NCBI GenBank assembly: GCA_963794955.1 | Contig: CAWCGF010000003.1 | Coordinates: forward strand, 195,915 to 259,914 | Length of the DNA stretch: 64,000 bases | Direction: 5' to 3' | DNA from: an uncultured Acidobacteriota bacterium | GTDB taxonomy: Bacteria > Acidobacteriota > Blastocatellia > RBC074 | Part shown: positions 2,539 to 56,665 of the stretch, in pieces | How the letters are laid out: every line of letters begins with the position of its first letter | Position numbering within the stretch: the stretch's first letter is position 1 | Translations under genes and position numbers: made by a program | Notes under the pieces: generated by a model | The model's database searches: none | What the model was told of the DNA's origin: nothing | The model's input: only the letters and a program-made list of their open reading frames with translations

Positions 2539-4507
2539 TTAGGGTTGATTATTTTGCTGCTTGAGAAATGCGCTATATCGCCCTAAAGCTGTTAGGGGGA
2601 ATTGATTGCGATATTGGTGGTAGTTAATGTAGAAATGGCCCGGAAAGCCGGTTCCTGTGAACTCGGCTTCGGGCCAACTTCCTTCACTATTTATTGAGTT
2701 CAATAAATACTCAATGCCCCGCGTTACACTGACCGATTCATAATCGCCCGCAGCCATCAATCCCAACAAAGCCCACGCGGTTTGTGAGGCCGTGCTAGGG
2801 CCTTTGCCGCGTAGCTCTGGTCGTTTGTAAGATTCACACGTTTCGCCCCAGCCGCCGTCCGCATTCTGTCTTGACCGCAGCCATTGCGTCGCGCGTTTCA
2901 CTTCATCGCACTTCATCGCAAAGCCTATAGATTGCCAACCGACCAACACCAGATAAGTCCCATAAACATAATTTACGCCCCAGCGCCCCCAGTATGCGCC
3001 ATCGCGTTCCTGCAAATTCAAGAGGAACTGCATGGCTTGATTTACCTGCGCTGCTGACGCCAGCTTTTCGCCCCAGGCTTTTTGCAGGTGACCGAGCGCT
3101 TCCAGCACACGACTTGTCACGTCTGCCGTCGGCGGATCAATCATCGCCTTCAAATCGCCGTAGGGCATCTGATTCCACAACTCGTTCGTGTTATCCACAT
3201 CAAATGCGCCCCAGCCACCAGCCTTGCATTGCATGGACATTACCCATTGCATCGCCGCGCGAATCGCCTCACGCTTATAAGTATCATTGTCGAGTTTGAG
3301 CGGCAGCAAGGCGAGGACTACGGCGGCAGTATCGTCTACGTCAGGGTAATAATCGTTGTGGAATTCAAACGCCCAGCCCGCTGGTTTGCCCGTGCGATTA
3401 TAGACGGCCCAATCGCCATACTTGAAAATCTGTTTGCTGAGCAACCATTCGCCCGCTTGTTTCAATTTCGGATGTGAGGGCGAGAGACCGGAATCCAGCA
3501 GTGCGGTAATTGCGAGCGCGGTATCCCACGTTGGCGAAACACAAGGCTGCGTGCGGTAATACATCGCTTCACCGTCGGCAGCCGCGCCTTCCGCAATACC
3601 AAACCGCTCAATTGCTTCGAGACCGCGTTTGACATACGGATGATTATTGGAGTAACCAAGCGCATGAAACATCAAAAGGGAATTGAGCATTGCCGGAATA
3701 ATGCCCGCCCAATCACCCGGATGATCCTGCCGTTCAATCACCCATCGCTCCGCTGCCGCAATGCCTTTTTGTCGGAGCGGAACCAGCCCAATTTTGTTGG
3801 CGAATTTTAGCACTTTGTCCGCGAGTAAAAAGCCAGCACCAACCCAGCGTCTTGTCGTTGTTTTTCAGCTTGTAATCCGCTTTCGCTTGTGAGCCTTCGA
3901 CAAACAATTCATCGCATTTCACGCCGCGTTCATACACTGGTCGTTTGTCAATCACCACGAGCAGCGGCACCGTTGAAGACCGCGCCCAACTTGCCATCGA
4001 GTACACATTGAACGGAAACCACTTCGGCAAAAACATAAACCAGGGTGGCAGCGTCGGAATCCCCTCCCACGGAAACGCGCCAAACAGCGCCAGGTGAAGC
4101 TTCGTGAAGACACGTGTTTTGCTCACGCCACCGCGCGCCAATATGAACGCTCGCGCGTTGACCAAACGTTCATCATCCGGGTGGTAGCCCGCCAGCCGCA
4201 GCGCAAAATAGGCTTCCACCGAAGTGCTGATTTCACCGCCATCGCCAAAATACAATTCCCATCCGCCATGCTCACGTTGTTCGCGCAAGATGTAGCGCGC
4301 CGCTTGTTGAATCTGCGCATCCCGATCCGTGCCGAGAATGCGGTGGAGCATAATGAATTCAGCCGTCAACGTGACATTAGCTTCGAGTTCCGCCCACCAA
4401 TACCCTTCGAGTTCCTGTTGCGCCAGCAAATATTCCTGCGCACGATGAATCGCAGCGGCGAGACGTGTGTGTGTGATTGTCTGTGTTGTTCGTTGAAGAA
4501 TCTGCAT
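2539..4507 (-). pseudogene. shc: squalene-hopene cyclase (shc), reading frame disrupted near 3815-3845
   Basis: The N-terminal 257 aa (4507-3734) and C-terminal 424 aa (3813-2539) both match SHC, with QW-type motifs and GWG/DGGWG repeats. The two frames overlap at 3734-3813 around the A5 run at 3833-3837, consistent with a single-nucleotide indel. Confidence 0.8.
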
Positions 4508-4644
4508 CGTCTTACAGTAAAGTTCTAATTCGCAGAGGTGTCAGGAAAGAGAATACGGAACATACGGAAATAACGGAACAAATGGAAGTCGCTTTACCAA
4601 AATATATTTCCGTCCTTTTCGCTATTTCCGTATATTCCATCTTC

Positions 4645-5493: not shown

Positions 5494-5570
5494 GGGGGCT
5501 CCTGTAATATGCATAAAGGCTCGAGATAGTAATGATAGTGATCCGCAAACACCCTGGATATTAGGCCTGC

Positions 5571-7367: not shown

Positions 7368-7454
7368 TGATTACACAGATTTTCACAGACTAGGAAAGAA
7401 AACTAGCCTCTACCAAGAGCAAAATGAATCTGTGTAATCGGTGGCTGAAAAAAA

Positions 7455-7898: not shown

Positions 7899-8021
7899 TG
7901 CTACTCCTTGGTTTGTATATCAACAGCGATGGGGCGCGAGGCGCATTCTAACTTGCCGTGCGCAGTCTTGTACAATAGGCTGCGATGCTTCAAATCGTGC
8001 CCCCGTTAGATTGAGAATTTT

Positions 8022-9056
8022 ATGCCGAGAAAATTACAGAAAAATAAATCACAAAAACTATATGAAGCCGCCATTCAAGCGGAGGATAACCAGCAAATGG
8101 ATGAAGCAGCACAGCTTTATCATGAAGCGATCAAGGCGGATAAGAATTCTCCTTTGCCACAATTCGGATTTGCCGCGTTGCTTCTGGAGCAAGAGAAGTA
8201 CAAAGAGGCAATTAAAGTTTCCCGTTTATTTGTCAAACGATGGCCTTGGCCGTTGGCATATATGATTATCGGGAGAAGCCATTTAGACTTAGGGCAGTAC
8301 GTTAAAGCTGAGCAAGCGTTTCAGCAATCCCTTGCATTTAAGCCAGAACCCGAAACTTGGTTTTTTCTAGGATTCACACTCATACGCTTGGGTCGTAACG
8401 ATGAGGCTATAGATTGTTACCATCAGGCGCTCAAGCTTGATCCTGATTATGACGAAGCCCACTATAATCTCGGCTGCGAATATAAATTGCAAAACCAACT
8501 GACTCAGGCAGAAATACATTTACGAAAAGCCATTGAGATTGACCCAAAATACTCCATAGCCTACGCTGAACTTGGAATTGTTTTGAGTAAAAAAGGCGAG
8601 TTGAAAGAAGCAGCCAAACTCCTGCGAAAATCTATTCGGTTAGAACCCAATTACGGTTGGGCGCGGGTATATTTGGCGAACACCTTATGGCATCAAAGAA
8701 AGCTCAAAGCGGCGGACGAACAGTATCGAAAAGTGATTGAGATATGGCCTGAATTTTCCTTATCCTACTGGTGTTATGGCGGGTTTCTGGCTGATGAGCA
8801 ACGCGATATTGCTTTAGCCGAAAGTCATTTGAGAAAAGCGGTTGAGCTTGACCCTCAAGATGAGGAGTCGAATTATTGGCTGGGAAAATGCCTACTGCGG
8901 TGGAATAGGCACAACGAAGCAAAAAAATATCTCGATATAGCCACTCGTTTAGGTCATCAGAAAGCGGCTGGTTTAGTAGCCGCCACATGGCCACCTCGCC
9001 CAAAAGCTATTGCCCCAGATGAAACTTCAATCTTGGCCTTGATTCATGAAGACTAG
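8022..9056 (+). CDS. tetratricopeptide (TPR) repeat protein
   Basis: 344 aa with repeated A..Y..A....P......LG TPR signatures throughout. Confidence 0.7.
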
Positions 9057-9669
9057 CATTTTCTTATTCTCTCAACTCGAAGCCGAAGCTGCTGCCTGTG
9101 TGATCTGCGAACGGATGCAGGAACGCAAAGCCGTGTTGAGCAAATTGAATGGCTCGCTCACGCCGCAAGTCATGTTTATCGCCGAAGCGCCGGGGCGGAA
9201 TGGCGCAGATCGCACGCGGATTCCCTTTCATGGTGACGCTTCAGGCAACACATTTGAGAAATTGCTGGCCAGTATTAAGCTCACGCGCGCCGAGATTTTT
9301 ATTACCAACACCGTGCTGTGCTCACCGCGCAAACCAAGCGGTGCCAACGATAAGCCCACGCGCGGCGAAATCCACAATTGCGCTAATTTCTTGCGCCGCA
9401 CCATCGAAATCCTTAACCCACCGGTCATTGCTACGCTCGGCGCAGTTGCCTTGGCGGCGCTCAAGCTGATTGCGGCGCACGAATACAGGCTGAAAGACAC
9501 GGCAGCGCAGGTATTAAATTGGAATGGTCATCGGCTTGTGCCGTTGTATCATCCGAGTCCGCAAGTGCTGATTACGGCACGACCATTCGAGCAGCAGTTA
9601 CAGGATTTCCAGGCTCTTCGCAACGCTATCGAAGTTGATGAAAGCAGGCGACGTGTGCGACTGGGCTAA
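9046..9669 (+). CDS. uracil-DNA glycosylase superfamily protein (family 4/5-like)
   Basis: Motif A-like [19 protein letters not shown] and C-terminal HPSP motif. ATG at 9046 overlaps the TPR gene stop. Confidence 0.6.
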
Positions 9670-9688
9670 CGAAATAACGAGTAGTGTG

Positions 9689-10544
9689 ATGAAAAATCAG
9701 TTTCCCCAAGCCGTGCAAGTTGGTTTGATCGGCGCAGGCATTCAGGCCTCGCGCTCGCCGCACCTCCATGAAAGCGAAGCGCGTGCGGCAGGCTTCGCTT
9801 ATTCGTACCACCTGTTTGACCTTGCACAACTCAACGTCGGTATTGCCGCTTTGCCGCAATTGCTCGCCAACCTGCAAACGCAAGGGTTCGCCGGAGTAAA
9901 CATCACACATCCTTGTAAACAAGCTATTATTCCGCTGCTGGACGAATTGTCGCCCGACGCTGCCGCTATTGGCGCTGTCAATACCGTCGTCTTCGCCGCG
10001 GGCAAGCGCATTGGCCATAACACGGATTGTTCTGGCTTTGCTGAAAGCTTCCGGCGCGGTTTGGCTGATGTCGCACGCCGCCACGTTGTCCTGCTCGGCG
10101 CGGGCGGCGCGGGTGCTGCCGTCGCCACTGCTGCTTTGCAAAGCAGCGTCATCAGGTTACTGATTCACGATGTCGAGAGCCACCGCGCCACTGCCTTGGT
10201 CGAACGATTGCGCTCGTCGCTTTGGCGTTGCTCGCAGCGCGGGTGTTACTAATCTTGCTGCCGCCCTTGCCACTGCGGATGGCTTGCTCCAGGCCACACC
10301 CATCGGCATGCACGGACATCCCGGTTTGCCCTTGCCAATAGCCTTGCTACGGCCTGCGCATTGGGTCGCCGAGATCATTTACTTCCCACTCGAAACCGAA
10401 TTGCTGAAGCAGGCACGCGCACTGGGTTGCCGCACGCTGGATGGTAGTGGGATGGCTGTCTTTCAGGCCGCGGAGGCCTTTCGCCTGTTCACCGGGGTAA
10501 CGCCAGATCGCGAGCGGATGTTGCGTTGTTTTGCAGAAATGTAA
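9689..10544 (+). pseudogene. aroE: shikimate dehydrogenase (aroE), frame disrupted near 10205-10225
   Basis: The N-part (9689-10252) carries AroE motifs: GLIGAGIQASRSP, NITHPCK, GAVNTV, GHNTD, LLGAGGAGAAVA. The C-part (frame +1, about 10215-10544) carries the substrate/NADP C-terminal motifs: ATPIGM...DGSGMAVFQAAEAFRLFTG. The switch lies at ...LVERLRS / RFGVARSAGV. Confidence 0.75.
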
Positions 10545-14651: not shown

Positions 14652-14765
14652 TCCTGCGGTACGGGGACGTGACAGCGACCAGCGCCAGCGTAAAAGGGGC
14701 TGTCTGCCCCCAGGTGTTACGTGGCTAAGCAATTATTTTGAAGTAATGAAAGGAACTTATTTACT

Positions 14766-29483: not shown

Positions 29484-29614
29484 ACAAAGCAAAAGACAAA
29501 TTGCAAAAGTTAAAAGGGCAGCACTTAACTTAAGTAATTGAGAAATGAATTCCTTCCGACTCTTCCTTTTGCGCTTTGCCTTTTGCGCTTCGCCTTTTGA
29601 TTTCGGGAAACTTT

Positions 29615-30583: not shown

Positions 30584-30600
30584 GTTCAGCAGAGCCTCGC

Positions 30601-31251
30601 ATGAACACAAAAGTATTCCAATTCATCGCGATCACGATTTTAATAGGAAGCCTGAGTCTGCCAACTTTTAGTCAGAGTAAGAAAACTGTAGCCCCGCCCA
30701 CGATTCCCAAACAACCCGCCGCCCTGGACGCCGAAGACTACGCCGTTTATTCCGTTTTGCTGCAATCACTTTATGGCAACGGCGCGAAACTCCTCGTGCT
30801 TGATAATTACGTGTCCGCTTGTGTTCCGGTAGGGAACAACACTGAGGGGGAAAAGGCGTGGCAGCAAAGCTTGAGTAGCTTGCCCGGCAAGATGCCGAAG
30901 CTGAGTCCGAAAACGGTTGCCGACTTCAAGCGCAAAACGCGGCAATGTCGCAACGTCGAAGCCAACTTCACCTTGCCTGCCAAGTACATTTTGCTGAGCA
31001 AACAGGAACGTAAGCAGGTCTTTTCTACTTCCGATACCAAGAAGGCGTGGGCGAACTTTTACCAAAAATATGCGGGGGCTTCCGGCTACATCAATTTGTC
31101 GAATATCGGCTTCAACGAAGATCGGACGCAGGCGCTGGTGGACACCTATCGCAAATGCGGGACACAATGCGGAGCCGAGAAAATGGTATTGTTGACGAAA
31201 GTAAACGGGAGTTGGAACGTAGCGGCGACACATAAAATCTGGGAATTTTAA
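30601..31251 (+). CDS. hypothetical secreted protein
   Basis: ATG at 30601 with a signal peptide; sits inside the Bat-like operon. Confidence 0.5.
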   Translation: MNTKVFQFIAITILIGSLSLPTFSQSKKTVAPPTIPKQPAALDAEDYAVYSVLLQSLYGNGAKLLVLDNYVSACVPVGNNTEGEKAWQQSLSSLPGKMPKLSPKTVADFKRKTRQCRNVEANFTLPAKYILLSKQERKQVFSTSDTKKAWANFYQKYAGASGYINLSNIGFNEDRTQALVDTYRKCGTQCGAEKMVLLTKVNGSWNVAATHKIWEF

Positions 31252-31254
31252 GCA

Positions 31255-33297
31255 ATGTCATTTCTAAATCCATTATTTCTCCTTGGTCTTGCTGCGGTGG
31301 CTGTGCCAATCATTGTGCATCTGGTGCGACGCACGCGCGCGAAAAAAATTGAATTTCCTTCGCTGATGTTTGTGCGTCAGGTGCCGCAGCGAACGATTCG
31401 GCGCAAGCGGCTTATCAATTGGCTGCTGCTTTTGTTGCGCTCGCTGGCTTTGCTCTGTCTTGTGCTGGCGTTTGCGCGTCCGTATTTTAGTGGCAGTGGT
31501 GCGGCGGAAGCTACGGGCCGGGAAAAGGCGACGATAATCCTCTTCGACAATTCGTTCAGCATGCGCTACGGCACACGCTTCGAGCAGGCGAAAACCAAAG
31601 CGCGTGCCCTCGTCAACGAAGCAGCGGGCAATGATCAGGTCGCGTTTGTGACGTTCGGGCAAGGCTATGAGGTGCTAAGTCGCTTTACGAATGACAAAGG
31701 CAAACTCCTTTCGCTTATTGACAGTGCGCAGGCCGGGCTGGGTTCGACGGCATATACGCAAGCCTTACGCGGAGCCGAAGAGTTGATGAAAGAAGCGACC
31801 ACGAAGGACCGCCGCATTGTTTTGATTTCGGATTATCAGGCAGCGGGCTGGAATCAGGCGGACACGTCGTATCGCCTCAGCAATGATATTAAGCTAGTGA
31901 CCAACGACGTGGGCGAAGCTGATGCGACGAACCTTGCTATTACCGACATCAACGCTCAGCCTGTAATTTATCAGCAGAAATATGCGGACAAACTGGCGGC
32001 TCGCCTCGCCAATTTTTCAGACGAAGCGCGTGACAATGTGCAGGTGGAATTTCAACTCAACGATCATACGGTGGAGAAGCGTCAGGTCAAAATCGCGGCG
32101 CGTGATTCGACGCTGGTGGAATTCACTGACTTCAACTTGAACGAAGGCGTGAATCGTGGCGTGATTGAAATTTCTGACACGAGTTTCCCTGTGGATAATC
32201 GCTTTTACTTCACGTTGCACCGCGAAGTGCAGGGGCAGGCGTTAGTCATTGAATCCGCCGGACGTGGGCGCAGCGAAAGTTTGTTTTTGCGCAACGCGTT
32301 GACGACAGGCGAAAACCTGCCCTTTGCTCTGACCATTAAGACGCCCGCTTCGGTGAATCCTGGTGATCTGCCTGGTTACAAAGTCATCATCCTCAACGAT
32401 GTTGACAGCATCAATCCGGCGTTGGCAGAACAGCTACAATCCTACGTCGAAAAAGGCGGTGGCTTGATTATTGCTGCCGGGCGTCATGTGGATGCGGCTG
32501 GCTTCAACGAAGCGTTCAAGCAGATCACGCCTGCTACGATTGGCGAACCAGTGCAACCCAAAGGCGATTACGTCACCCTCAGCGACATCAGAACGGATCA
32601 CCCGGTGTTTGAAGTCTTCCGGCAAAGCGGACGCTTCGCCGCCGCGCGCGTGTTTGGTTATCGGCGCGCGACGCCGCAGGAAAAAGCATCGGTACTGGCG
32701 CGTTTTGAAGATGGCACTCCGGCGTTGCTGGAATCTTCGTTCGGGCAAGGCAAAGTGCTGCTTTTCACTTCGACGTTGGATTCAAGCTGGAACGACCTGC
32801 CACTCACCCCGTTGTATTTGCCATTGATGCGACAGATGGCCCGCTATTTGGGGGAACGCGACCGGCAAGCGTGGCAATTAGTGGGGCAAACCTTCACGGC
32901 AATCCAAGCCAAAGACGGCGCGATTCCTGCGGTAGATTCGCCGAGCAACAATCGCATTACGGAACGCAATCAAACCGCGGCTGGTGATCTGCTCGTAAAC
33001 GCCCGCGAAAACGGTTTCTATCGGTTGCGCTATGCGGCGGCGACAGATTTTGCTGCCGTAGATTTGGACGGCAAAGAGTCTGATTTGACCAAGCTGAATG
33101 GCGATGAGTTTGTCGCCGCCGTCACAGGTGCCGACCCGAAAGCCGATGCGGTTGCCGCTGGGCAAGGCAAGCTCACGAACGAGGAGCGCGAAGCCAAGCA
33201 GCGTGTGTGGTGGCCGTTGCTGATCGCGGCCCTGTTGCTGTTTGTGACCGAAGCCGTGCTGGCGCGGAGGACGAAGATGGCTCGAGTGATTGGTTGA
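31255..33297 (+). CDS. BatA-like protein: N-terminal double-TM domain plus vWA domain
   Basis: N-terminus PLFLLGLAAVAVPIIVHL...RLINWLLLLLRSLALLCLVLAFARP, a vWA MIDAS-like block (ILFDNSFSM), and a C-terminal TM helix. Confidence 0.8.
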   Translation: MSFLNPLFLLGLAAVAVPIIVHLVRRTRAKKIEFPSLMFVRQVPQRTIRRKRLINWLLLLLRSLALLCLVLAFARPYFSGSGAAEATGREKATIILFDNSFSMRYGTRFEQAKTKARALVNEAAGNDQVAFVTFGQGYEVLSRFTNDKGKLLSLIDSAQAGLGSTAYTQALRGAEELMKEATTKDRRIVLISDYQAAGWNQADTSYRLSNDIKLVTNDVGEADATNLAITDINAQPVIYQQKYADKLAARLANFSDEARDNVQVEFQLNDHTVEKRQVKIAARDSTLVEFTDFNLNEGVNRGVIEISDTSFPVDNRFYFTLHREVQGQALVIESAGRGRSESLFLRNALTTGENLPFALTIKTPASVNPGDLPGYKVIILNDVDSINPALAEQLQSYVEKGGGLIIAAGRHVDAAGFNEAFKQITPATIGEPVQPKGDYVTLSDIRTDHPVFEVFRQSGRFAAARVFGYRRATPQEKASVLARFEDGTPALLESSFGQGKVLLFTSTLDSSWNDLPLTPLYLPLMRQMARYLGERDRQAWQLVGQTFTAIQAKDGAIPAVDSPSNNRITERNQTAAGDLLVNARENGFYRLRYAAATDFAAVDLDGKESDLTKLNGDEFVAAVTGADPKADAVAAGQGKLTNEEREAKQRVWWPLLIAALLLFVTEAVLARRTKMARVIG

Positions 33298-33564: not shown

Positions 33565-33755
33565 TTTGGCTACATCTATGGCGTCTGAAAGATTTTTACG
33601 CGGCATAGGCCGAGAACGAAAAACTCGCGCAAATGGCACGAGAAATTGCCTAGCCCCGCACAAGTGGTAATTGTGATGGATGGAATTGATTGACTGGGTA
33701 AAGAAGCGCGTTGACAGTTATTCAGTCAGACGCCATTCTTATTGCGGAGGTAATT

Positions 33756-33983
33756 ATGTCTATCTTAATCCGAAAGAAAACGGCCACAGCAATAAACCCG
33801 GAACAGGCTGAACGAGAGCAATTGATCATCGCGTTGGAAGAAACGACACCAGCAACCAAGCTGGGGCGAAGGTTGAAAACCTTGCGATTGAAGATGCTGC
33901 GTGAAGGGCAGAAGCTGCGGTCGTTAGATGAAATCAACCGGAGCTTGGGGAGAGCCAGCGATGCCGATCTTAACCTTCCTTGA
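33756..33983 (+). CDS. putative type II antitoxin (VapB-like position)
   Basis: GGAGG RBS 8 nt upstream. 75 aa. Its 3' end overlaps the PIN-domain gene start by 23 nt. TTGACA box at 33714-33719. Confidence 0.5.
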   Translation: MSILIRKKTATAINPEQAEREQLIIALEETTPATKLGRRLKTLRLKMLREGQKLRSLDEINRSLGRASDADLNLP

Positions 33984-34368
33984 TGCCAACGTTTTGATCG
34001 CTGCTGCAACGGGACGATTTACCGTTTCAATGGACGCACAGGCGATCTTGAGTGATGCCAATCGGCTCTTTGCGTCTTCTCCTTTTGTTCGGCTTGAAAC
34101 GATTCCGAAGGCGTTCTTTCATCGCAACACGGATGAGGTGAAATTTTACGAAGCATACTTTTCAGCCGTGAGTTCGTATGACGATGAATTAAATGAGTTG
34201 GGCGCTGAAGCTGAACGAGTCGGAAAACGATTTGGCTTGAATATGGGCGATGCATTGCACATTGCCGCAGCCTTGCGTTTACAGGCAGATGAATTTATTA
34301 CCGCCGAACGTCCGACTTCACCTTTCAAAAATGTGGTCGGCGTGAAAGTTATTTCCATCTATCGCTGA
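33961..34368 (+). CDS. PIN-domain ribonuclease (VapC-like toxin)
   Basis: N-terminal ILTFLDANVLI with the conserved Asp, and later acidic residues (GDALHIAAA). Confidence 0.7.
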   Translation: MPILTFLDANVLIAAATGRFTVSMDAQAILSDANRLFASSPFVRLETIPKAFFHRNTDEVKFYEAYFSAVSSYDDELNELGAEAERVGKRFGLNMGDALHIAAALRLQADEFITAERPTSPFKNVVGVKVISIYR

Positions 34369-34390
34369 GATTATTTGCAGGAGTCTTGCC

Positions 34391-36343
34391 TTGTACCTCT
34401 CACGTTTATTCATCAAAAATTATCGTTCGATCAAAGAACTTGACTTGACCTTTGCCAAAGGCAAGAACGTGCTCGTCGGCAGGAATAATGCGGGCAAGAG
34501 CAATGTCATCAAGGCAATTGACCTGGTATTGGGCGAATACTCACCGACCTACACAAAATCGGAGAACGTCACCGAAAGTGATTTCTATTCGTGGCACGAC
34601 GATGTGGCAGGCCGCGAAGTTATTCAATCTGCCAGCGACATGTTCATCTGGTGCGAGTTGCGGCGTGATGTTGGCGAAATGCTGAACTACGACGAAATGT
34701 ACAAGGCGAATTCGCTGGTGATTTACACCCGGCTCGAAGGCTGGACGGTAGACAACAAGCCGATCAAACAGGCTGCGCGCATCTCGCAGCACGCATTGCC
34801 TTACAGTTACGAACCCATCTTTGAACTCAACGAAGACAATGCCGACCGCGATTGGATTGTGACGCGCAAGCGGGAATTGCAGCCGCTCGAAAAACAATTC
34901 GACGACAAATATCATTACGCGTTTGCCTTCCGTGCGACCAAAGACGAATTCGGGCACATCAACAAAGATATGCGGTTCCTCTACCGCGAAGACGAGTTCA
35001 GCGATTGGGTCTTGGCCTTTCGCGCGCCGATTCGCAACGAGCTATTACAAAGCGCGATTATCCCCGCTTTTCGTGATCCCGGCTCGCAACTGCGGCTCAA
35101 TAATTGGACGTGGTATGGACGTCTGATGCGGCATCTGACGGCGGGGCAGGAAGGCTCGACTGAATTGCAGTCCGCGATGGATCAGGTCAAATCCGTCGCC
35201 GACAAAATCTTTGCCGAAGCCAAAGAGCAAACGACGGCCAACACGCTTGATCTCGCTTTCCCGGACACCGAACTGCACTTTCAATTCAACACGGAAACGC
35301 GCGCCGACCTCTATAAAAGTGCGGCGTTGTACGTGGACGATGGCTACAAATCGCAGCTTGCCGACAAAGGCTCCGGCATTCAGAGCGCCGTTGTGATTGG
35401 CTTGTTTCAATATTACACGCGCGCTGTCAACACGGTGACGTCGGCGCTGCTTTGCATCGAAGAGCCGGAACTTTTCCTGCATCCCCACGCGCGCAAAGTC
35501 ATCAGCAATCGGCTCGACAACTTTTTGGACGGCAACAAACATCAAGTGATTTTGTCCACACACAGCGAAGAGTTCATTCGCTCGCAAGCAGGCGATTTGC
35601 ACGTCGTCCGCATTCGCAAAGATGCCAGCGGCACGCAGGCGACCAGTGTTAATTACCGTGCCTTCAGGCCATTGCTGCTGTGGGAAAAACAAAACGAATT
35701 GTTTTTTGCGGACAAGGTAATCGTCTGCGCGGGCTATCACGACTTCATCTTGAAAGCCGTCGCCGAAGAATTATTCCCCGGCCAGCTTGAAGAACAAAAC
35801 ATCTCCATCATCGCCGTCGGCGACAAACGCTATCTCAGTCAGGTTGTGCAGTTGATTTTGCAACTCGGCATCAAATGTTTTGTCTTCGCCGATTTTGAGT
35901 TTTTGTTGCGTGACGAAGCCGAAACTGCCACATACTATTCCGCCACGCCGCAAGAACATTTGCTGAGTTTGAGCGATGCGTTCTTCACGCAGGAATGCAC
36001 TTTTGGTGCGACCGGAGCCAAAGCCAAACAGTTCATCGAAAAGCTTCGCTCGCAAATCAAAGAATTGGATGTGGTGGCCTTTTACACCGCCAAATCCGCC
36101 GCGCAAATTTCGCATCCGAACATCCAACAAGTCCTTGACCGCCTGCGCAGTAACGGCGTTGGCATCCTCAGCGGCGAACTCGAAAACCTGTCTAACGATT
36201 ACGCGTTTCTGTCGCCCACGGACGGGCTTTCGCTGGCAAAGATTTACGCGCTGAATCAACGATTGATGAGTGGAGAAAAGATCAGCGAGTTGTTGCTGAC
36301 GAGCGAATTGAGTGATTTCTTGCGGGTGGTCTTGGCGCGCTAA
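34391..36343 (+). CDS. OLD-family ABC-type ATPase (AAA_15/AAA_21-like) with a C-terminal Toprim-like region
   Basis: GGAG RBS then TTG at 34391, 23 nt after the vapC stop. Walker A GRNNAGKSN, Walker B LLCIEEPELFLHP, H-loop ILSTHS. C-terminal VIVCAGYHD...IIAVGDK...FVFADFE resembles a Toprim with the first Glu replaced. Confidence 0.7.
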   Translation: MYLSRLFIKNYRSIKELDLTFAKGKNVLVGRNNAGKSNVIKAIDLVLGEYSPTYTKSENVTESDFYSWHDDVAGREVIQSASDMFIWCELRRDVGEMLNYDEMYKANSLVIYTRLEGWTVDNKPIKQAARISQHALPYSYEPIFELNEDNADRDWIVTRKRELQPLEKQFDDKYHYAFAFRATKDEFGHINKDMRFLYREDEFSDWVLAFRAPIRNELLQSAIIPAFRDPGSQLRLNNWTWYGRLMRHLTAGQEGSTELQSAMDQVKSVADKIFAEAKEQTTANTLDLAFPDTELHFQFNTETRADLYKSAALYVDDGYKSQLADKGSGIQSAVVIGLFQYYTRAVNTVTSALLCIEEPELFLHPHARKVISNRLDNFLDGNKHQVILSTHSEEFIRSQAGDLHVVRIRKDASGTQATSVNYRAFRPLLLWEKQNELFFADKVIVCAGYHDFILKAVAEELFPGQLEEQNISIIAVGDKRYLSQVVQLILQLGIKCFVFADFEFLLRDEAETATYYSATPQEHLLSLSDAFFTQECTFGATGAKAKQFIEKLRSQIKELDVVAFYTAKSAAQISHPNIQQVLDRLRSNGVGILSGELENLSNDYAFLSPTDGLSLAKIYALNQRLMSGEKISELLLTSELSDFLRVVLAR

Positions 36344-47560: not shown

Positions 47561-47590
47561 AAGCGCCCCATCCTCATTCGGAGGCCGATT

Positions 47591-48754: not shown

Positions 48755-48763
48755 GGATGTACG

Positions 48764-48842
48764 GCAAACTTTCCAGTTTGCTGTTGTATTCACTAGCGAC
48801 TTGCACCGGAGACAGCAGCAAACTGGAAAGTTTGCTGTACAT
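48764..48842. promoter_or_regulatory. near-perfect 26-bp inverted repeat carrying two inverted copies of GCAAACTGGAAAGTTTGC
   Basis: Arms TGTACGGCAAACTTTCCAGTTTGCTG and CAGCAAACTGGAAAGTTTGCTGTACA (one mismatch). Lies between the protease stop and the ceramidase-like start. Confidence 0.7.
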
Positions 48843-48856
48843 TTAAGGCCCCACGA

Positions 48857-50558
48857 ATGTCACGCTTATTTCTTATTGCAATTCTGCTCACCTTGCCCTT
48901 CACGCTCAGTCCGTCTGCGCCTAAAAAAGAACTCAAAGCGGGTTTCGCCGCCATCACCATCACACCGTTTGGCAACAATCCCGCGTGGGATGGCACGGTT
49001 ACAGACACGGGCGTGTGGGGCGAAAAGTTCACCGACACTAATAAAAACAGGCATTGGGATAAAGGCGAGCCGTTTGAAGATGACGAGGGAAATACGCAGA
49101 TTGACGCTGGCTCGAAAGAAAAATACGACGGCATTTATCTCGCCGGCTTTGGTGACAATCGTCTTGCTACAGGCAAGCACGATGATTTGTGGGCACGCAC
49201 GATGGTGCTGGATTATGGCTCAACGCGCATTGCCATTGTCTCTGTGGATTTGATTGGGTATTACTCGGATGGTTCTTACTACGGTATCAGCCAGGTAAAG
49301 AAGCTGCTTGACCCAAAACTAGGCATTCAAGAAATCCTCGTGGCTGCGACGCATAACCACGAAGCGCCCGATAGCATTGGGGCCTGGGGCGAGAATTTTA
49401 TGAAGGATGGGAAGTATCCGAAATACTTGCGCTTTGTGGATCGGATGATTGCCCGAAGCATCGAAGATGCCGCGAAAAGTTTGCAACCTGCCAAATTCAA
49501 AATCGGCGTGACTGATCCGGTGCAAGTCTCCCAGCCTTGCCGGAATGCAGGTGCGCAATGGTGGGCGTCCGCCAAAATTCTTTGACGAAGAAATGCGCGT
49601 GATGCAATTCATCAGCAAGCAATCCAACCAGACAATTGGCACGCTCATCAACTGGAACACGCATCCTGAATCCATGGAAGACAAGAACCGGGAGATTTCC
49701 TCGGACTTTATTCATGCTGCGCGCGCAACCGTTGAGAAGAAATTCGGCGGCACGGCGCTGTACATTTCCGGTGCAATTGGCGCAGTTGAAATCGTGGGCG
49801 ACTCGAATACAAAGCACACTGACCGCACCAAATTTGACGGCCAGGAATTTCCGCTCAAACCGAACAGCACCCGGCCTGTTTTTGCGTTCGAGCGCACGGA
49901 AGCTATTGGGCGCGACATCGGCAAAGCTGCCATTGAAGCGATTGATAAGGGCGAATGGAGTAAGAGCAATGAGTTGGAAGTGAAGAAAGCGGATTTGCAC
50001 GTGCCGATGGACAATCAAGCGTATCTGATTTTGCTCAAACTCGGCGTATTGGATACGGTGATGAATCCAGATGTGACAGGCCAACCACAGTCACGGACGA
50101 CGATTTATGCGATCAACTTGGGCGATGCACAGATCGTCACGACGCCGGGCGAACTGTTTCCTGAACTCTATTACGGCCTGGATAAATATCGCCGCAACGA
50201 TTGCCCTGCTGCTGACACGGGCGCGCCGCTGGAGCCGAGCATTCGCGGCGCAATGACCAGGAAATATCGCTTTATGTTTGGGCTGTGTCCTGATGAGTTC
50301 GGCTATATCGTTCCCGCGCACGATTTCCGCCGCGAGACGATTGATTTAAAAAATCCGCAGATCAAAAAATCGCCCGATGCGTGCAAGGCGCAAGGCGTGC
50401 CGGATCATTATCACGAAACGAATTCCTCTAGTTCTGTTCTCGCCCCCGCTTCGGCTTGTGTGACCGTCGCGCTGTTGACGGGCAAAATGCCGAGCGCTGC
50501 GGCTTGTAAGAATGTGGCGCAGTATTCGGAATATGTGAAGGGCTTGCCGACACGATAG
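48857..50558 (+). pseudogene. neutral/alkaline ceramidase-like hydrolase, frame disrupted near 49521-49585
   Basis: N-part (48857-49585) has a signal peptide and [23 protein letters not shown]...[10 protein letters not shown]. The C-part (49545-50558) continues the same family in another frame; the two ORFs overlap by about 40 nt. Confidence 0.55.
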
Positions 50559-50584
50559 CGCCTGCGTTTCCAGACGCTATCGCG

Positions 50585-52192
50585 TTATCTCACCTTCAGC
50601 ACGACGAACGTCACATCGTCATCTTGCGGTTTGCCGTGCGCCCAATCATCGCCGCTTTGAACGAATTGTCGGATGATTTCAGCCGCTGATAAATTCACCG
50701 CATTTGCCAGAATCGCTTGCATCTGTTCGTAGCCGAGCATCTCGGCTGCGTCATTGAATCGTTCCGGCAATCCATCGCTCATCAACACTACCACATCGCC
50801 GGAAGCCAGCGTGAGTTCCTGTTCCTGGTAGGCGTAATTCGAGATGCTGCCGAGCGGCATGGCTTTGTGCAGGATTTCTTCGATCTGGTTTGTTGCTGCG
50901 CGATACAGCAGGATCGGAGGCATTCCGGCGGCGGCCAGCGTCAAGCGATAGTCGGTTACTTTGGCAATTGTCAGCGCCATAAACAGCCCACGCATATTCA
51001 TCTTTTTGAGCGCACGCGAAAATCGTTGCAGCATCGCGGCAGGCGGTTCGGCACCACTTGTTTCATTGAAGAGGCTTTTCGTTGCCGTCACCATTGTGCC
51101 AGCTTTCAAGCCATGTCCCGTCGCATCGCCAATCGCAATCGTCAACGTGTTATCGTCCGCGACGTGAAAGTCGTAGTAGTCGCCACCCACTTCCGTCGCC
51201 GTTTTCATATATGCCGCGATTTCCAAATCGGGAAACTGCGGCACCTTCTTCGGCAGCATCGAAAGCTGCAATTGGCGCGCTTCTTCCAACTCTTTGGCGC
51301 GTTGTTCATTTTGCGCTTCGAGTTCGATTTTCTGTTCGATCAGGCGCGAGTTTTCCAGCGCCATCGCCGTTTGCCCTGCGACATTCATCAGCATTCGTTT
51401 GTCTTCGCGCGAGTACGGCAAATCGCCTGCGCGCGGCCCCAACGCCAACACGCCCAGCAATTCGTCTTTCGCCGCCAGCGGCAACACCAGATTCGTTTTC
51501 AATGCGCGCAACGTATCGAATTCCTGCTGTGCTGTGCCATCGCCGTTCGCCATCGCGGCAAGCTGTGTAGCGACGGGCGAATACGGATCGTCCCAATCAA
51601 TTTCCGCCGGCTGAGCGGATTCCTGAATGCGCTGCACAACAAACGCATCATCGGGCAAATGTAATTCACGCGCGACGGCATGCGACAGCTTCTCGCGTTC
51701 GTGATAATCGCTCGACACCGCGCTGCTGAAATCGTGTCGTCCATTGCGCAAAAAGATCGTCACGTTCGCGGCATAAAGCGCCTGCTGAATGATTTTTGCC
51801 GAGAGTTCCAGCACCTGATTGACGTTGGTTGTCGTGCGCAGCGAACTCGTCAGTTCCGTCAAAATCTGCTGTGCATCGTACGCATCACGAAAGAAGCGGC
51901 GCTCAATCAGCGGATGCACTTTGCGATTGACGTATTGCAACCCCAGCACCATCAGCACCGTGCCGACAACGATGATGAGCGTGCGCGTGTTGCTCCCAAA
52001 GCGATCCAGCCAAACGCCGATGCGTCCGGCGAACAGGAAGCTGAGCAGCGCGAAGGCGAGCAAGGCTTCGATCAGGATGAAGCCACGTGAAGCGAGCAGA
52101 TAGCGAACGCTGCGGCGAATGACAACGCTAATGTCGAGAACACGATGTTTTAGGATAGCGTAAGCCCAAGCTATGGGAATCCATAAAATCAA
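50585..52192 (-). CDS. SpoIIE/PP2C-family serine phosphatase with N-terminal TM helices and a GAF domain
   Basis: PP2C block MLPKKVPQFPDLEIAAYMKTATEVGGDYYDF...IAIGDATGHG...LMSDGLPE...DDDVTFVVLKVR. Paralogous to 54048-56665. Confidence 0.8.
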   Translation of the reverse strand: MILWIPIAWAYAILKHRVLDISVVIRRSVRYLLASRGFILIEALLAFALLSFLFAGRIGVWLDRFGSNTRTLIIVVGTVLMVLGLQYVNRKVHPLIERRFFRDAYDAQQILTELTSSLRTTTNVNQVLELSAKIIQQALYAANVTIFLRNGRHDFSSAVSSDYHEREKLSHAVARELHLPDDAFVVQRIQESAQPAEIDWDDPYSPVATQLAAMANGDGTAQQEFDTLRALKTNLVLPLAAKDELLGVLALGPRAGDLPYSREDKRMLMNVAGQTAMALENSRLIEQKIELEAQNEQRAKELEEARQLQLSMLPKKVPQFPDLEIAAYMKTATEVGGDYYDFHVADDNTLTIAIGDATGHGLKAGTMVTATKSLFNETSGAEPPAAMLQRFSRALKKMNMRGLFMALTIAKVTDYRLTLAAAGMPPILLYRAATNQIEEILHKAMPLGSISNYAYQEQELTLASGDVVVLMSDGLPERFNDAAEMLGYEQMQAILANAVNLSAAEIIRQFVQSGDDWAHGKPQDDDVTFVVLKVR

Positions 52193-52769
52193 TAACCAAG
52201 AGATGATAAATAAGCTCTCATAACACAGGCGGGGACATCACGGGGAGAGAAACTAGAACATAACAGATAAGTATAAGCGGAGTGGCAACGGTGATACTGA
52301 CTATAATCCACTTGATTCGCTTTCGCTGTTGAAGCTCTGTAGTAACCCTGTAGTTACGAATCACAACAAGAATGATTGCGATGGAAACACAATGAAAAAG
52401 GTAAAGATAAGCGCATGAGAAATAGGGGCGTAGGTCTCATGAGGCTAAGAAATGGATACGGCATGTGTGTTCCTATGCCTATTGCATAAAGCGCCCATTT
52501 TATGATGTTCCAGAATCTACCTTTGCGGACACCTGGCGGAAAACGTAAGAAAAGATGAAAAAGTATCGGAAACGCAAGTGAATGGCCTCAAAAAGAATAT
52601 TCAAGATAGTTCCAGATCAGCTTTTCCCTATCGTCGAAGAGAAGAGAAGGAAGGCTTAGCACAATTAATAATTGGTTCTGTCCGAAAAAATAAAAGGCCG
52701 CAAAAAAGAGTCGAACGATTAGAGTCGGAAGGCCGTAGTAAACCAGCCAGGATTGCTACAAGAAGGCAG

Positions 52770-53054
52770 CTAAGAGAAACTAATCCTATGGAAAAGACTC
52801 TCCGCAATTCGCGAGAAAAATATCGGTGACCGATGAAGGCTTAGACTCAATTCAATTTGTTGCCTTATTCCATTGCGTTCGACTTCTAACCAATAAGTTG
52901 TGCCAATAGGCATGAAGCGTCTAGCTTGGTTGAGATCATCCCGCGCAACGGGAACCTCATTGATTGCCAGAATACTATCACCTACTTGTAATTTGCCTTC
53001 TGCCGGGCCACCGGGATAAATGCGTGTAACTCGCAATTTGTCTATCCACTTCAT
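52770..53054 (-). pseudogene. orphan PDZ-domain gene fragment (remnant of a SpoIIE-paralog N-terminus)
   Basis: LRVTRIYPGGPAEGKLQVGDSILAINEVPV aligns with the PDZ domain of the downstream paralog (VTRTDPKGPATVLLPGDEFLAINGITP). It is followed by a low-GC segment with no coding frame. Confidence 0.5.
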
Positions 53055-53062
53055 ACCCGGTC

Positions 53063-53197
53063 TTACTCCATCCCCAGATACTTGTAGACCATTGTCCCGG
53101 CGAACGCCCAGCTACACACGCCGATTACAGCGGCTACGACAACGACCCAGAAAAAGGGGTGTTTGTCTCGGAACTGATCGCGCAAGGTTCTCCGCAT
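53063..53197 (-). CDS. small single-TM protein (44 aa)
   Basis: AGGAGA RBS 6 nt upstream of ATG at 53197. Hydrophobic core FFWVVVVAAVIGVCSWAFAG. Confidence 0.35.
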   Translation of the reverse strand: MRRTLRDQFRDKHPFFWVVVVAAVIGVCSWAFAGTMVYKYLGME

Positions 53198-53277
53198 GAT
53201 CGTTTCTCCTGATTGATTTGAACTGCTGTTGGCTGAGGCGCATTGTAGCACGCGCGGGGTAGAGAACAAGGGCGCGG

Positions 53278-53613
53278 TTAGGCTGCGGCGTATTCGGTAT
53301 ACGGTCTGACATACGGCGGCTGAAAGCCCAACACGATGTCGCTCTTTGGCACGCCTGCCTCTTCTAATTCAGCAGTGATGCCGTGCTCGATCCAATCTTC
53401 CTGCACCCAGATTTTTCCATTGATGATTTCCAAATGGGTGATGACAGTATGCACGCGCCGCCCGTTGTCCCAGCCTTCGCGCACCAACAGATAGCTATCC
53501 GACTGGCGATCAAAGACCGTCTTGTCGCGCAAGTCAGTATACCGTCGCAATTCTCCGACGTGTTGCGTCAGGAGTCGCTCGATGATGGTTCGATAGTGTT
53601 CCACTTGATCCAT
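53278..53613 (-). CDS. xisI: XisI-family protein
   Basis: N-terminus MDQVEHYRTIIERLLTQ and overall length match the XisI family. Confidence 0.75.
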   Translation of the reverse strand: MDQVEHYRTIIERLLTQHVGELRRYTDLRDKTVFDRQSDSYLLVREGWDNGRRVHTVITHLEIINGKIWVQEDWIEHGITAELEEAGVPKSDIVLGFQPPYVRPYTEYAAA

Positions 53614-54017
53614 TGCACAACCTCCGTAGTTTGCGGGTCAAACACCAGCAAATTCACGTGCTCTGTTCGCAAAAACTCTATGACGTGCGGCAAGCTGATG
53701 TAGCTTTCATACACATCTTTCCGTATAGCCAAAAACAATTCGCGGTCAGGCTGCGTCCGGCGCAGCAGGTAGCGATACAGCACGATTTGCCCCATCGCAT
53801 CTTCCAAATCTTCTGTCCGCGATCCGCGCAAAAAGCTTTTGACTTCAACCGCAATTTTACGCTCGTCTTTTTCTGCGGCAATGATCTTTTCTGCGCCGAG
53901 ATCAACGTAAACCGGAGCGCTTCCCCACAGCAGCAACAGCGGATCGTCCGTGATCGTCCAGCCGTCTTTTTCGAGCGCGAGCCGAACGTGGGGATGGAAC
54001 AGGTCTTTTGCTGGCAT
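53568..54017 (-). CDS. xisH: XisH-family protein (restriction-endonuclease-like fold)
   Basis: MPAKDLFHPHVRLALEKDGWTIT... is a typical XisH N-terminus. Overlaps xisI by 46 nt. Confidence 0.75.
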   Translation of the reverse strand: MPAKDLFHPHVRLALEKDGWTITDDPLLLLWGSAPVYVDLGAEKIIAAEKDERKIAVEVKSFLRGSRTEDLEDAMGQIVLYRYLLRRTQPDRELFLAIRKDVYESYISLPHVIEFLRTEHVNLLVFDPQTTEVVQWIKWNTIEPSSSDS

Positions 54018-54047
54018 AGGCAAGTAGTATAGCGTTTTTCAGCAAGT

Positions 54048-56665
54048 CTATCGAATCTTCAGCACGACAAACGTCACGTCATCATCCGCCAACCGACTCT
54101 GCCCCCAATCATCTCCGGCTTGCACCAGGCGTGTCAGGATTTCTTGCGACGACAAATGCGCGGTGGCGACCAGCGTATGTTTCGCTTGATCGTAGCCGAG
54201 CATTTCGTTGGCTGGATTGAAGCGTTCGGGGAAGCCGTCGCTCATCAGCACAACAATGTCGCCGGGCTGAAGCGCGACGTCTTCCTGTTTGTACGTGTAA
54301 TTCGTCAGGCAGCCGAGCGGCATGGCTTTGATGAAGATTTCTTCGATGTGACGCTGCAGAGGCGCGATAAATCAGGATGGGCGGCATCCCGGCAACCGTG
54401 ATCGTGAGGCCGTGATTCTTGAGCCGCACGACGGTCAGCGCCATAAACAGCGAGCGCAGATTCATCTTCTTGAGCGCGTGCGAAAACCGCTTGAGCATGT
54501 CGGGCAAATCGTCACCGTTGCGCTAATTCGTGAAAGAGGCTTTTCGTTGCGGTCACGACGGTGCCAGCTTTCAACCCGTGTCCCGTTGCGTCGCCAATGG
54601 CTATCGTTAATGTGCCGTCATCGGCGACGTGAAAATCGTAGTAATCGCCGCCCACTTCCGTGGCCGTTTTCATGTACGCGGCGATTTCCAAGTCGGGCAA
54701 TTGCGGCACGTTCTTCGGCAGCATCGAAAGCTGCAATTGGCGCGCTTCTTCCAACTCTTTGGCGCGTTGTTCGTTTTCTGCTTCGAGTTCTTCGCGGCGT
54801 CGCGCGTCTTCGATCATGCGTTCGATCAACCGCGTGTTTTCAAGCGCGAAGGACATCGGCGCGCTGACCGACAGCAGCAATCGTTTGTCTTCATTGGAGA
54901 AGGGCAGATCGCCCAAACGAGCGCCAAGCGAAATGATGCCAGACATTTCGTCTTTGCCTTTGAGCGGCAGGAGCAAGGCGGAGTTCAAGGCCTGCAAGGT
55001 TTCCGTTTCGGCTTCTGTCAATACGGAGACGTTTTCGACGAACACCGATTCACCTTCGCGTTCGACTTCCAACGGGTTGGCGGCTTCAAGCAAGCGGTTG
55101 GCAAGCTCGGTTTGTGATGTGAACTGATGCCCATTGACGCTTGTTGTGGAATGCGGGCTGCGCGGATCGTAATCGCACGAATAGGCGCAAGTGTATGCGC
55201 CTGTCGCTTCATCTTTCAGCAGGATCGTGACCCGCTCGGTTTGCAACGCCGCTTGGATTTTGGTGGCGACCAGTTGGGGCAACTGCTTACGGTCGGTCGT
55301 CGTGCGCAGCGATTCCGAAAGCTCAGACATGATCTGCTGGGCGTTGTACGATTGGCGGAAAAACTTGCGATCAATCAGCGGCGCTAGATAACGGTTGTGA
55401 ATCGCGCGCGTGCCTTGCCAGACAGCAACGCTCACGATGCCGGACACGAGTCCAACGACCAGATGCGATGCCTGAAAGTACCTCATAATCATTCGCAGAA
55501 CGACGGTCAGGACGAGGATGACGGTCAGGAATTCGAGAATGACCGCGCCGCGTGAGACCAATAAATACCGCACGCCGCGCCGAATAATCAGACTGATCGG
55601 AATGACTTTGTGGCGAATGATGGCGTAGGCGAACGACAGCGGAATCAGCGGCATCGTCACCACCATGCTGATTTCTATCCATTGATTCGCTTGTGGTATC
55701 CGCCTTTGCAAACCGAAGAATTCCCCGATAATGACCAGCAGTAATGTGAGAAACCCAATCCCGCTCCCAAACATAATGACGCGCAATCGTCGTCGCGCAT
55801 CTACGCCGGCAACGCGATAATTCACGGCCAGGCAAAACAGCCCTGCGGCCAAATATGCCACTAACGTGGGCATCGGCAGGTGTAGGAAATGATGGGCATT
55901 GAGCCATTTGATGGGCGGTAAGCTGAAGTACCAGAGCCTCGGCAAATCGGGCAGTCTGGTGCCCGCAAAGAAAGGCAGCGCACCCAAATAAAACGGCCAG
56001 TACAGATACCGCTCCACTTTGGGCCAACGCTTCAGAATCGGTGAACGATCCGGAAAAATGAGGAAGAACTTTACGAGCAAGGGCAACGACCAGAGGCCGA
56101 GGATTTTGACAAAGGACACGACAAACTCTACCCCGCGCCCCAGCGCCATCAGGGGCATTGTCCACGTACTCAACAGCGTAAACGTGCCGAGCATCAAAGC
56201 TAAGTACCACGCTTGATCGTTGTCCGGTTTGAGCAGGAACACGAATAGCCCCGTCAGCAGAAAAATCAAATAAATCAGCAGGAAAACCTTTTGCCCCCAG
56301 TCCGGCTGCTGTGCGAGATTTTCCACCGTCACGAGCCGGAACGACAACTCCTGCCCGTTGCGTCGCACCGTCATCGTGTAATTCGTTCCCGGCGGCACGC
56401 GGCCTGCGAAGTTCATAATGCTGGGGTCTTGGCGCGGTGTGATGCCATTGATCGCCAGAAATTCATCGCCTGGCAGTAATACCGTAGCTGGGCCTTTGGG
56501 GTCGGTGCGTGTGACGAGGGGTGGTTTGTCAAATCCCTGTTGTTCTCCGCTCCATCCGTCATAGCTGCCGATGTGAAAGAAGACAAAGTACACCCGCACG
56601 CCGAAGTAAAAAAACAACAAGGCGAAAAAGAGGCTACCTAAAATGAGGCGACGTTTGTTCTTCAC
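54048..56665 (-). pseudogene. SpoIIE/PP2C-family phosphatase paralog (PDZ, polytopic TM, GAF-like, PP2C) with two or more frame disruptions (about 54505-54515 and about 54345-54375)
   Basis: The long ORF (56665-54512) stops inside the PP2C domain right after IAIGDATGHGLKAG...SLFHELAQR. The PP2C domain continues in two further frames (54507-54109, 54323-54048) and matches the upstream paralog residue by residue. ORF bases 56746-56950 overlap the pbp gene and are not coding. Confidence 0.7.

Follow-up and report, generated by a model that had tools for sequence, protein, structure and literature searches.

Within the 64,000-nucleotide stretch of Blastocatellia (Acidobacteriota) DNA analysed here (the window), four genes are interrupted by a total of five frame breaks: a squalene-hopene cyclase gene (shc), an aroE-like gene, a neutral/alkaline-ceramidase-like gene, and a gene for a membrane PDZ-GAF-PP2C (SpoIIE-domain) phosphatase, here called gene A, which carries two of the five. 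Between gene A and its tandem paralogue, gene B, lie genes for XisI and XisH (53278..54017), which are used below as anchors for a comparison with read-derived sequence. Table 1 collects the positions of these features. The splitting of shc, aroE, the ceramidase-like gene and the "SpoIIE paralog" into adjacent ORFs had already been remarked upon in a first-pass annotation, and is confirmed both by the ORF lists and by the continuity of Pfam domains across the fragments.

Table 1 Positions, strands and source or state of the features discussed.
Feature	Position	Strand	Remarks
shc	2539..4507	-	655 aa after removal of one G
shc ORF fragments	4507..3734 and 3813..2539	-	ORF list
aroE-like gene (shikimate-dehydrogenase-family paralogue)	9689..10544	+	284 aa after removal of one base
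aroE-like ORF fragments	9635..10252 and 10170..10544	+	ORF list
Intergenic spacer	14652..14765	.	115 bases in the window, 114 in the Logan contig
Neutral/alkaline-ceramidase-like gene	48857..50558	+	566 aa after removal of one base
Ceramidase-like ORF fragments	48857..49585 and 49545..50558	+	ORF list
Gene B (tandem paralogue of gene A)	50585..53197	-	~870 aa; threading on orthologue P0375
XisI	53278-53613	-	Pfam assignments on the Logan contig and on L148
XisH	53568-54017	-	Pfam match
Gene A (membrane/PDZ-GAF-PP2C phosphatase)	54048..56665	-	871 aa after two one-base removals
Gene A ORF fragments	56665..54512, 54507..54109 and 54323..54048	-	ORF list

Alignment with relatives shows each of the five breaks to consist of exactly one surplus base, and once that base is deleted at each site every relative can be aligned without gaps. 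Comparison with orthologous loci, which had been suggested as a check, found the affected genes to be full-length in every relative examined. In shc the break is a GG read as GGG at 3843-3845, rather than lying at the A5/T5 run where it had earlier been placed; the nucleotide alignment at this point is CTG[G]GTT against TTGGTC. The Pfam domains SQHop_cyclase_N and SQHop_cyclase_C continue over both ORFs (E-values 4e-86 and 1e-134), and the corrected protein contains DVDD, an instance of the DXDD motif, so that on its domains and this motif the product is predicted to be a squalene-hopene cyclase. It shows no gap against 40 relatives, is 85-88% identical to its Blastocatellia orthologues, and includes the peptide KNNDKTLVGAGFLLADK, which is the same in the relatives L004 and L002; a scan of genome contigs returned relatives only, at no more than 88% amino-acid identity.

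The remaining breaks can be placed similarly. In the aroE-like gene, whose Pfam domains are divided between the two ORFs, the surplus base lies inside TCGT at 10214-10217, and where the frame shifts the relatives read ERLRPRFG; the catalytic motifs NITHPCK, NTD and GAGGAG can be seen by eye in the corrected translation. In the ceramidase-like gene it lies at 49522-49523 (GT[G]C or GTG[C]AAG), the nucleotide alignment being GTGCAAG against GT-CAAG; over the junction the relatives read DPVKSPS, and intact orthologues have 565-569 aa and up to 87% identity. Gene A has one surplus base within 54514-54520 (break 1) and a surplus C at 54356, in TCTG[C]AGCG (break 2), and positions 1-35 and 103-191 of the SpoIIE Pfam model fall on separate fragments. 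After both deletions there are no gaps against the relatives (L148 and L147 in the nucleotide alignment), and the corrected protein of 871 aa can be aligned from one end to the other with theirs, which have 839-873 aa. The catalytic motifs GGDYYDF, GDATGHG and DDDVT are visible by eye in its translation. On its domains, with SpoIIE continuous once the frame is corrected, it is classed as a PP2C phosphatase with GAF and PDZ, of the same architecture as its relatives. It is the orthologue of their single PP2C gene, with 71% amino-acid identity to L148.

One way of reconciling split frames with functional genes would be to suppose that the breaks are decoded biologically, whether by programmed +1 ribosomal frameshifting or as split, two-piece proteins. 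Break 1 of gene A does place a zero-frame TGA right where the frame shifts (CGG TGA C), which superficially resembles the prfB type of +1 frameshifting, but it is the only one of the five to do so: elsewhere there is no adjacent stop, and the old frame continues for some 10 to 80 codons before reaching one. The five sites share no common motif or slippery sequence, no relative has a frameshift at any of them, all orthologues being in one frame, and the ten or so additional shifts found in gene B (see below) cannot be programmed. This possibility is therefore regarded as scarcely credible.

A more serious alternative is that the five insertions are genuine and very recent frameshifts, in a lineage that is losing hopanoid synthesis, an accessory shikimate dehydrogenase, a ceramidase-like hydrolase and a signalling phosphatase. 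The first-pass annotation had offered gene decay and assembly indel errors as its two alternatives, and of these the evidence favours assembly errors and not decay. One of its arguments was that aroE is normally indispensable. However, the best match of the aroE-like gene is to the NF009201/PRK12549 shikimate-dehydrogenase subfamily (418 bits, NCBIfam); against the TIGR00507 aroE model it scores 186.5, under the cut-off of 200.2, while against NF001319 (the equivalog "shikimate dehydrogenase") it is narrowly above, at 259.6 against a cut-off of 252. In the close relatives L007 and L008 the UDG and ECF-sigma genes are found without this gene between them (a statement that concerns this same position only). 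On these profile scores it is best classed as an accessory shikimate-dehydrogenase paralogue, not as the biosynthetic AroE of TIGR00507, and the argument from essentiality fails because the gene is accessory and close relatives lack it at that position. This cuts in the other direction also, since the organism could plausibly do without any of the four affected genes, as one would expect of real pseudogenes, and the occurrence of two breaks in gene A is what would be expected once a gene was already dead.

The character of the lesions themselves, in contrast, is not what genuine frameshift pseudogenes would lead one to expect. All five reported breaks are insertions, and when the lesions of gene B and of one intergenic spacer are included the totals become 14 insertions and 2 deletions (five reported, eight and two in the gene B patch, and one in the spacer). 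Replication slippage would favour runs of five or more bases. In fact four of the five breaks lie outside homopolymers, the fifth being the GG read as GGG in shc, and none of the 231 runs of at least five bases in the window is affected, which as a whole makes an atypical spontaneous spectrum. No nonsense codons, larger indels or insertion elements are found among the lesions of the window, and the corrected genes contain no in-frame stops. Nor was any relaxation of selection found in the affected genes: the private nonsynonymous:synonymous counts on the window branch are 10:29 for shc (the lowest ratio among nine taxa), 19:25 for the ceramidase-like gene (inside the range of the relatives) and 114:104 for gene A (within or below their range), none of them above the relatives. 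It also counts against real decay that gene A is a conserved, single-copy orthologue in those relatives. Motifs of methylation type (TGCA, GATC, CTGCAG) were sought at the five sites, and nothing consistent was shared among them.

Much of the remaining evidence comes from gene B. Here the final 535 codons make up one intact ORF, the first ~335 codons are broken, and it is this N-terminal third of a full-length gene, broken only by some ten single-base indels at 52223-53066 (843 bases), that had previously been described as a gene fragment beside the SpoIIE paralog. The earlier count of "five or more" disruptions thus holds as a minimum, at least five being present, but is too low once these are included. 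When threaded, with protein guidance, on its orthologue P0375 (882 aa), gene B is 73% identical and has no in-frame stop, at the cost of eight extra and two missing bases. At the nucleotide level the identity to L149 is 74-89% from XisH down to ~52540, a degree similar to that of XisH and XisI on its flank; below that point the identity is lower. The patch is not substitutionally degraded, because it retains 73% identity without stops and, over most of its length, an identity to L149 like that of its flanks. A reading of the gene B N-terminus as a substitutionally degraded remnant, suggested by codon-usage scoring, was rejected on the strength of the threading on P0375 and the flank-like identity; the region has atypical codon usage and is not decayed. 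Threading guided instead by the distant paralogue A gave a poor and misleading alignment, which was set aside.

The same region can be compared with independent sequence in the Logan contigs of run ERR12037361 (on which no literature was found), a comparison that rests on gene coordinates and exact protein matches. Three Logan contigs encode six proteins exactly identical to those of the window and two others that differ at 1/259 and 1/714 residues, amounting to two residue differences in ~2,300. On the contig that reaches gene B, the XisI protein is exactly identical and XisH is equal in length and spacing, and an ORF of 246 codons or more runs unbroken from the ATG that maps to window position 53197; to cross the same span, the window itself has to change frame at least five times. 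Independent sequence of the same population lacks the breaks of gene B over most of the patch. The first-pass argument that two breaks clustered next to a gene fragment speak for at least the SpoIIE break being real fails, the "fragment" being the N-terminal third of gene B and the Logan ORF being unbroken over the part of gene B that it covers. A further difference lies outside coding sequence: the intergenic spacer of Table 1 has one base more in the window than in a Logan contig of 3,807 bases that encodes four complete proteins, all of them exact matches to those of the window (at 14766 there is a single possible ORF). In the 10.2 kb covered by Logan there are therefore at least six indel differences, to be set against the two amino-acid differences in ~2,300 residues; indels far outnumber substitutions because at least five frame switches and one spacer base stand against two residue changes. 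Biological divergence would give the opposite pattern, with substitutions exceeding indels.

The coverage of this comparison has its limits. No Logan contigs were found over any of the five reported sites, which thus lie outside read-level coverage, a point in favour of genuine frameshifts. The corrected shc, ceramidase-like and aroE-like proteins have no exact match in the collection, where strain variants and the shortness of the Logan contigs limit such a look-up, while the ORF fragments of the window occur in the source record only and not in Logan. Nevertheless, the same assembly that carries the five breaks differs by many indels from a contig built out of reads of the same population, and the breaks of gene B are not seen in that population's reads; taken with the lesion spectrum, this makes genuine frameshifts at the five sites quite unlikely.

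The explanation preferred here is that the five breaks are consensus errors of the assembly and not gene decay, to which a probability of roughly 85% is assigned. The window comes from a draft, unannotated 328-kb Blastocatellia contig, probably metagenome-derived, whose consensus probably carries insertion-biased single-base indel errors. Five isolated surplus bases would then split shc, the aroE-like gene, the ceramidase-like gene and gene A, all of them presumably intact in the organism, while a low-quality patch of ~850 bases with ~10 more indels would make the first third of gene B resemble a gene fragment. On the lesion spectrum and by analogy, we infer that the five reported sites probably arose by the same error process as the gene B patch. 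In keeping with an artefact, the indels are all small and the corrected genes otherwise undamaged, an indel is found outside coding sequence as well, and indels outnumber substitutions against the same population.

Indel errors that turn genes into apparent pseudogenes are a known fault of long-read assemblies (PMC12007338, PMC8574707), and the likeness extends to several particulars: in long-read or poorly polished assemblies, as here, single-base indels split genes that are otherwise perfect into neighbouring ORFs that overlap, the lesions of the window (about one per 4-13 kb) are clustered in a low-quality patch, and those of gene B are lacking from an independent read-derived contig. However, the published residual errors of common long-read platforms fall chiefly within homopolymers (PMC8574707), whereas the surplus bases of the window mostly do not, so that such platform errors fit four of the five sites poorly. 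It must also be borne in mind that the Logan population matches the window closely but not exactly, that the dispensability of all four genes is equally what real pseudogenes would show, and that the two breaks in gene A lie only ~160 bases apart, for which we estimate a chance of ~5% if errors were distributed uniformly.

Raw read error need not be the immediate cause. The consensus might instead be a chimera of co-existing strains, with indels introduced where reads from diverged haplotypes were merged, and the very uneven error density (~10 indels in 843 bases against five in the remaining ~60 kb) would suit this, as would the strain-level variants of the Logan population (1/259 and 1/714 residues). 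Such a chimera would still be an assembly artefact, overlapping with the preferred explanation and indistinguishable here from low-coverage consensus error; it is thought possible, though somewhat doubtful, as the specific origin of the indels.

If consensus error is indeed the cause, the finding is an ordinary one and its value mainly cautionary. Taken at face value the window would imply the loss of hopanoid synthesis, of shikimate dehydrogenase and of a conserved phosphatase, together with a "truncated paralogue", and it is likely that none of these is true of the organism; any metabolic or pseudogene analysis of this contig calls first for polishing or for conceptual correction of the frameshifts. 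Were the extra bases real, a natural Blastocatellia population would very recently have inactivated shc, the conserved PDZ-GAF-PP2C phosphatase and also two accessory enzymes, by way of an unusual mutational process that favours insertions and does not depend on homopolymers. This is considered very unlikely and, as a recent loss of genes by a free-living acidobacterium, would be of modest interest.

As regards the rest of the window, tRNA and Rfam scans, run with a view to indels in RNA genes, found no structured RNA. Pairs of ORFs that overlap near 15.5, 17.9 and 30.4 kb were considered as further splits and rejected, being distinct genes, and the other large ORFs with a Pfam match show no split domain and mostly cover their domains from end to end.

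Four genes in the window are each broken into neighbouring overlapping ORFs (from ORF lists), and the family domains recognised by Pfam carry on across the fragments. In shc, SQHop_cyclase_N positions 1-211 lie on the first fragment and positions 203-289, with the C domain, on the second; in the shikimate-dehydrogenase-family (aroE-like) gene the N domain and SDH_C are on separate fragments; in the ceramidase-like gene Ceramidase_alk positions 18-147 are followed by 176-233 on the next fragment; and the GAF-PP2C ('SpoIIE') phosphatase gene, gene A, is in three pieces. At each of the five breaks, removal of a single base yields a junction that is gap-free against all relatives (5/5). All five are thus +1 insertions, four of them outside homopolymers, and none of the window's 231 runs of five or more bases is hit by a break. 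The shc break had been placed at an A5/T5 run in the first-pass annotation; its actual site is a GG run (see table), and the corrected junction peptide, KNNDKTLVGAGFLLADK, is the same in two relatives. Neither a frame plot of codon usage across the entire window nor Pfam searches of the other overlapping ORF pairs found further split genes outside 50.5-56.7 kb, and no domain was split in any other large ORF that Pfam matched. The original count of five or more breaks was correct but understated, there being about 15 frame-disrupting indels, strongly clustered; overall, 14 insertions stand against 2 deletions.

Features of the window, with read-derived (Logan) contigs that overlap it
Feature	Window coordinates	Detail
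shc break	3843-3845	CTG[G]GTT vs TTGGTC in relatives; GG run read as GGG
TPR-repeat gene	8022-9056	
Shikimate-dehydrogenase paralogue (aroE-like)	9689-10544	
aroE-like break	10214-10217	one extra base within TCGT; relatives: ERLRPRFG
Logan contig, 3,807 bases	~11.1-14.9 kb	4/4 complete proteins exactly identical
Spacer	14652-14765	T5, A4G4 and C5 runs
Bat/MoxR-type cluster	28467-33297	MoxR AAA_3 ATPase, DUF58 protein, Pfam-unmatched ORF, BatA/VWA protein
Candidate islet	33711-36343	
PIN-domain gene	33928-34368	overlapped by small ORF
OLD-family ATPase/TOPRIM protein	34391-36343	Pfam AAA_15 + OLD-like_TOPRIM
Logan contig, 4,802 bases	~42.0-46.8 kb	one exact protein; two differing at 1/259 and 1/714 residues
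Ceramidase-like break	49522-49523	GTGCAAG vs GT-CAAG in L146, a relative's locus
Phosphatase paralogues with XisI/XisH	50585-56665	
Gene B, intact ORF	52192-50585	535 codons
Logan contig, 1,619 bases		XisH, exactly identical XisI, then ORF of at least 246 codons up to contig end
Gene A	56665-54048	minus strand
Gene A break	54356	extra C, TCTG[C]AGCG vs ACCG-AACG
Gene A, other break	within 54514-54520	one extra base
Near-identical A/B stretch	54704-54764 (A); 51200-51260 (B)	60 bases

With the corrected shc protein as query, a search of species-representative genomes gave 65 loci, nearly all from Blastocatellia or Acidobacteriota MAGs (some are labelled with other taxa in their records), the best of them at 85-88% protein and about 80% DNA identity. 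The aroE-like gene has as its top NCBIfam match the 'shikimate dehydrogenase' subfamily NF009201/PRK12549 (418 bits); it scores narrowly over the cut-off of the 'shikimate dehydrogenase' equivalog NF001319 (259.6; cut-off 252) and under that of TIGR00507 aroE (186.5; cut-off 200.2). In the window it is flanked by uracil-DNA-glycosylase and ECF sigma-factor genes, and in L007 and L008, the loci of the two closest relatives for which the flanks are available, 137-154 bases separate these same two genes and no dehydrogenase gene intervenes. As this gap is empty, and as none of the 65 shc-linked loci has an aroE homologue, the gene is best regarded on comparative grounds as an accessory paralogue where it stands here, so that breaking it would be uninformative on viability; the earlier argument that aroE is indispensable accordingly does not apply. 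The TPR-repeat gene is likewise missing from the otherwise syntenic L007 and L008, and the two genes (8022-10544) appear to have been either inserted in this lineage specifically or lost from the relatives.

The phosphatase family (about 865 aa, in relatives from metagenomes) runs from an N-terminal membrane/PDZ part through GAF to PP2C. Close relatives have a single phosphatase gene, to which gene A is orthologous, with 71% aa identity to that of locus L148 (gene order ceramidase, phosphatase, XisI, XisH, PBP, FHA, SpoU); gene B is the second paralogue and shares about 52% identity with A. Between the gene B ORF and XisI, at 52.2-53.2 kb, short ORFs chained in shifting frames make up the 'gene fragment' beside which the clustering of breaks had been taken as a sign of real decay. 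Full-length gene B orthologues do occur among cluster representatives (P0375, 882 aa, and P0374), and P0375 can be threaded on the window from the ATG at 53197 with 73% identity over 383 positions and no in-frame stop, given ten single-base frame events from 53065 to 52223 (8 extra and 2 missing bases). Down to about 52540 the window matches the orthologous locus L149 at 74-89% nucleotide identity (78-89% in the flanking XisH/XisI); identity drops over the final 350 bases, a part that aligns less reliably. Because the threading is stop-free and the identity to L149 is much as in the flanking genes, gene B is a full-length gene, broken by indels only, of which the 'fragment' is part. The same two results rule out a degraded remnant as the identity of its N-terminal region, a candidate raised by codon-usage scoring. 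Ten frameshifts without any stop or extra substitution cannot be produced by evolutionary decay.

Three Logan contigs, assembled straight from the reads of run ERR12037361 and representing independent sequence of the window's own population, were compared with it through gene coordinates and protein identity. The ORF of at least 246 codons begins where the window has the ATG at 53197; to stay clear of stops over its span the window must change frame at least five times, and reaching the main ORF of gene B takes at least seven switches. In the spacer, where a single ORF is possible, the window is one base longer than the Logan contig, in which the four flanking proteins are exactly identical; the extra base is probably a consensus error, a real polymorphism being possible. 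Over the 10.2 kb comparable there are at least six or seven single-base indels as against two amino-acid differences in about 2,300, and such an excess is characteristic of consensus error and not of strain divergence.

We would put the probability that the five reported breaks, all of which lie outside the three Logan contigs, are assembly artefacts at roughly 0.85, because lesions of this same kind, in gene B, are absent from the reads, because only insertions occur and long runs are spared, an atypical spectrum for spontaneous mutation, because there is neither other damage nor relaxed selection, and because gene A is a conserved orthologue that relatives keep intact. The corrected genes contain no in-frame stops, and those catalytic motifs that were inspected by eye in their translations are present. 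Window-private nonsynonymous to synonymous changes, counted per lineage from codon alignments, are 10:29 for shc (the lowest ratio among nine taxa), 19:25 for the ceramidase-like gene and 114:104 for gene A, the latter two inside the relatives' range. Comparison with orthologous loci, as the first-pass annotation had proposed, found full-length orthologues everywhere: shc in relatives with contigs spanning it, ceramidases of 565-569 aa (up to 87% identical), dehydrogenases of 284-286 aa (up to 79%) and phosphatases of 839-873 aa. Real recent frameshift mutations are an improbable explanation, and programmed frameshifting, or split genes that function as such, a barely credible one. Indels that fragment genes are known in long-read assemblies (PMC12007338, PMC8574707); the published errors are, however, mostly homopolymer-associated, which the breaks here match only partly. 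The errors may have come from low depth or from the merging of co-existing strains. As between the two alternatives first offered, then, assembly error fits, while decay loses both its aroE and its clustering arguments; the frame breaks are probably not a biological feature.

The divergent tandem PDZ-GAF-PP2C membrane phosphatase paralogues lie on either side of an XisI/XisH pair. L148 has one phosphatase gene and then one XisI-XisH pair, L149 has two tandem XisH-XisI pairs upstream of its gene B orthologue, and the XisH/XisI-phosphatase association recurs across relatives. One stretch is 98% identical between genes A and B, whose DNA is elsewhere 50-70% identical; either strong constraint on the ELEEARQLQLSMLPK segment or a short tract of gene conversion could account for it. 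Elsewhere in the window, the small ORF overlapping the PIN-domain gene is possibly an antitoxin gene and, with the OLD-family gene directly following, the islet may be a toxin-antitoxin or defence locus. The Bat/MoxR-type cluster is intact.
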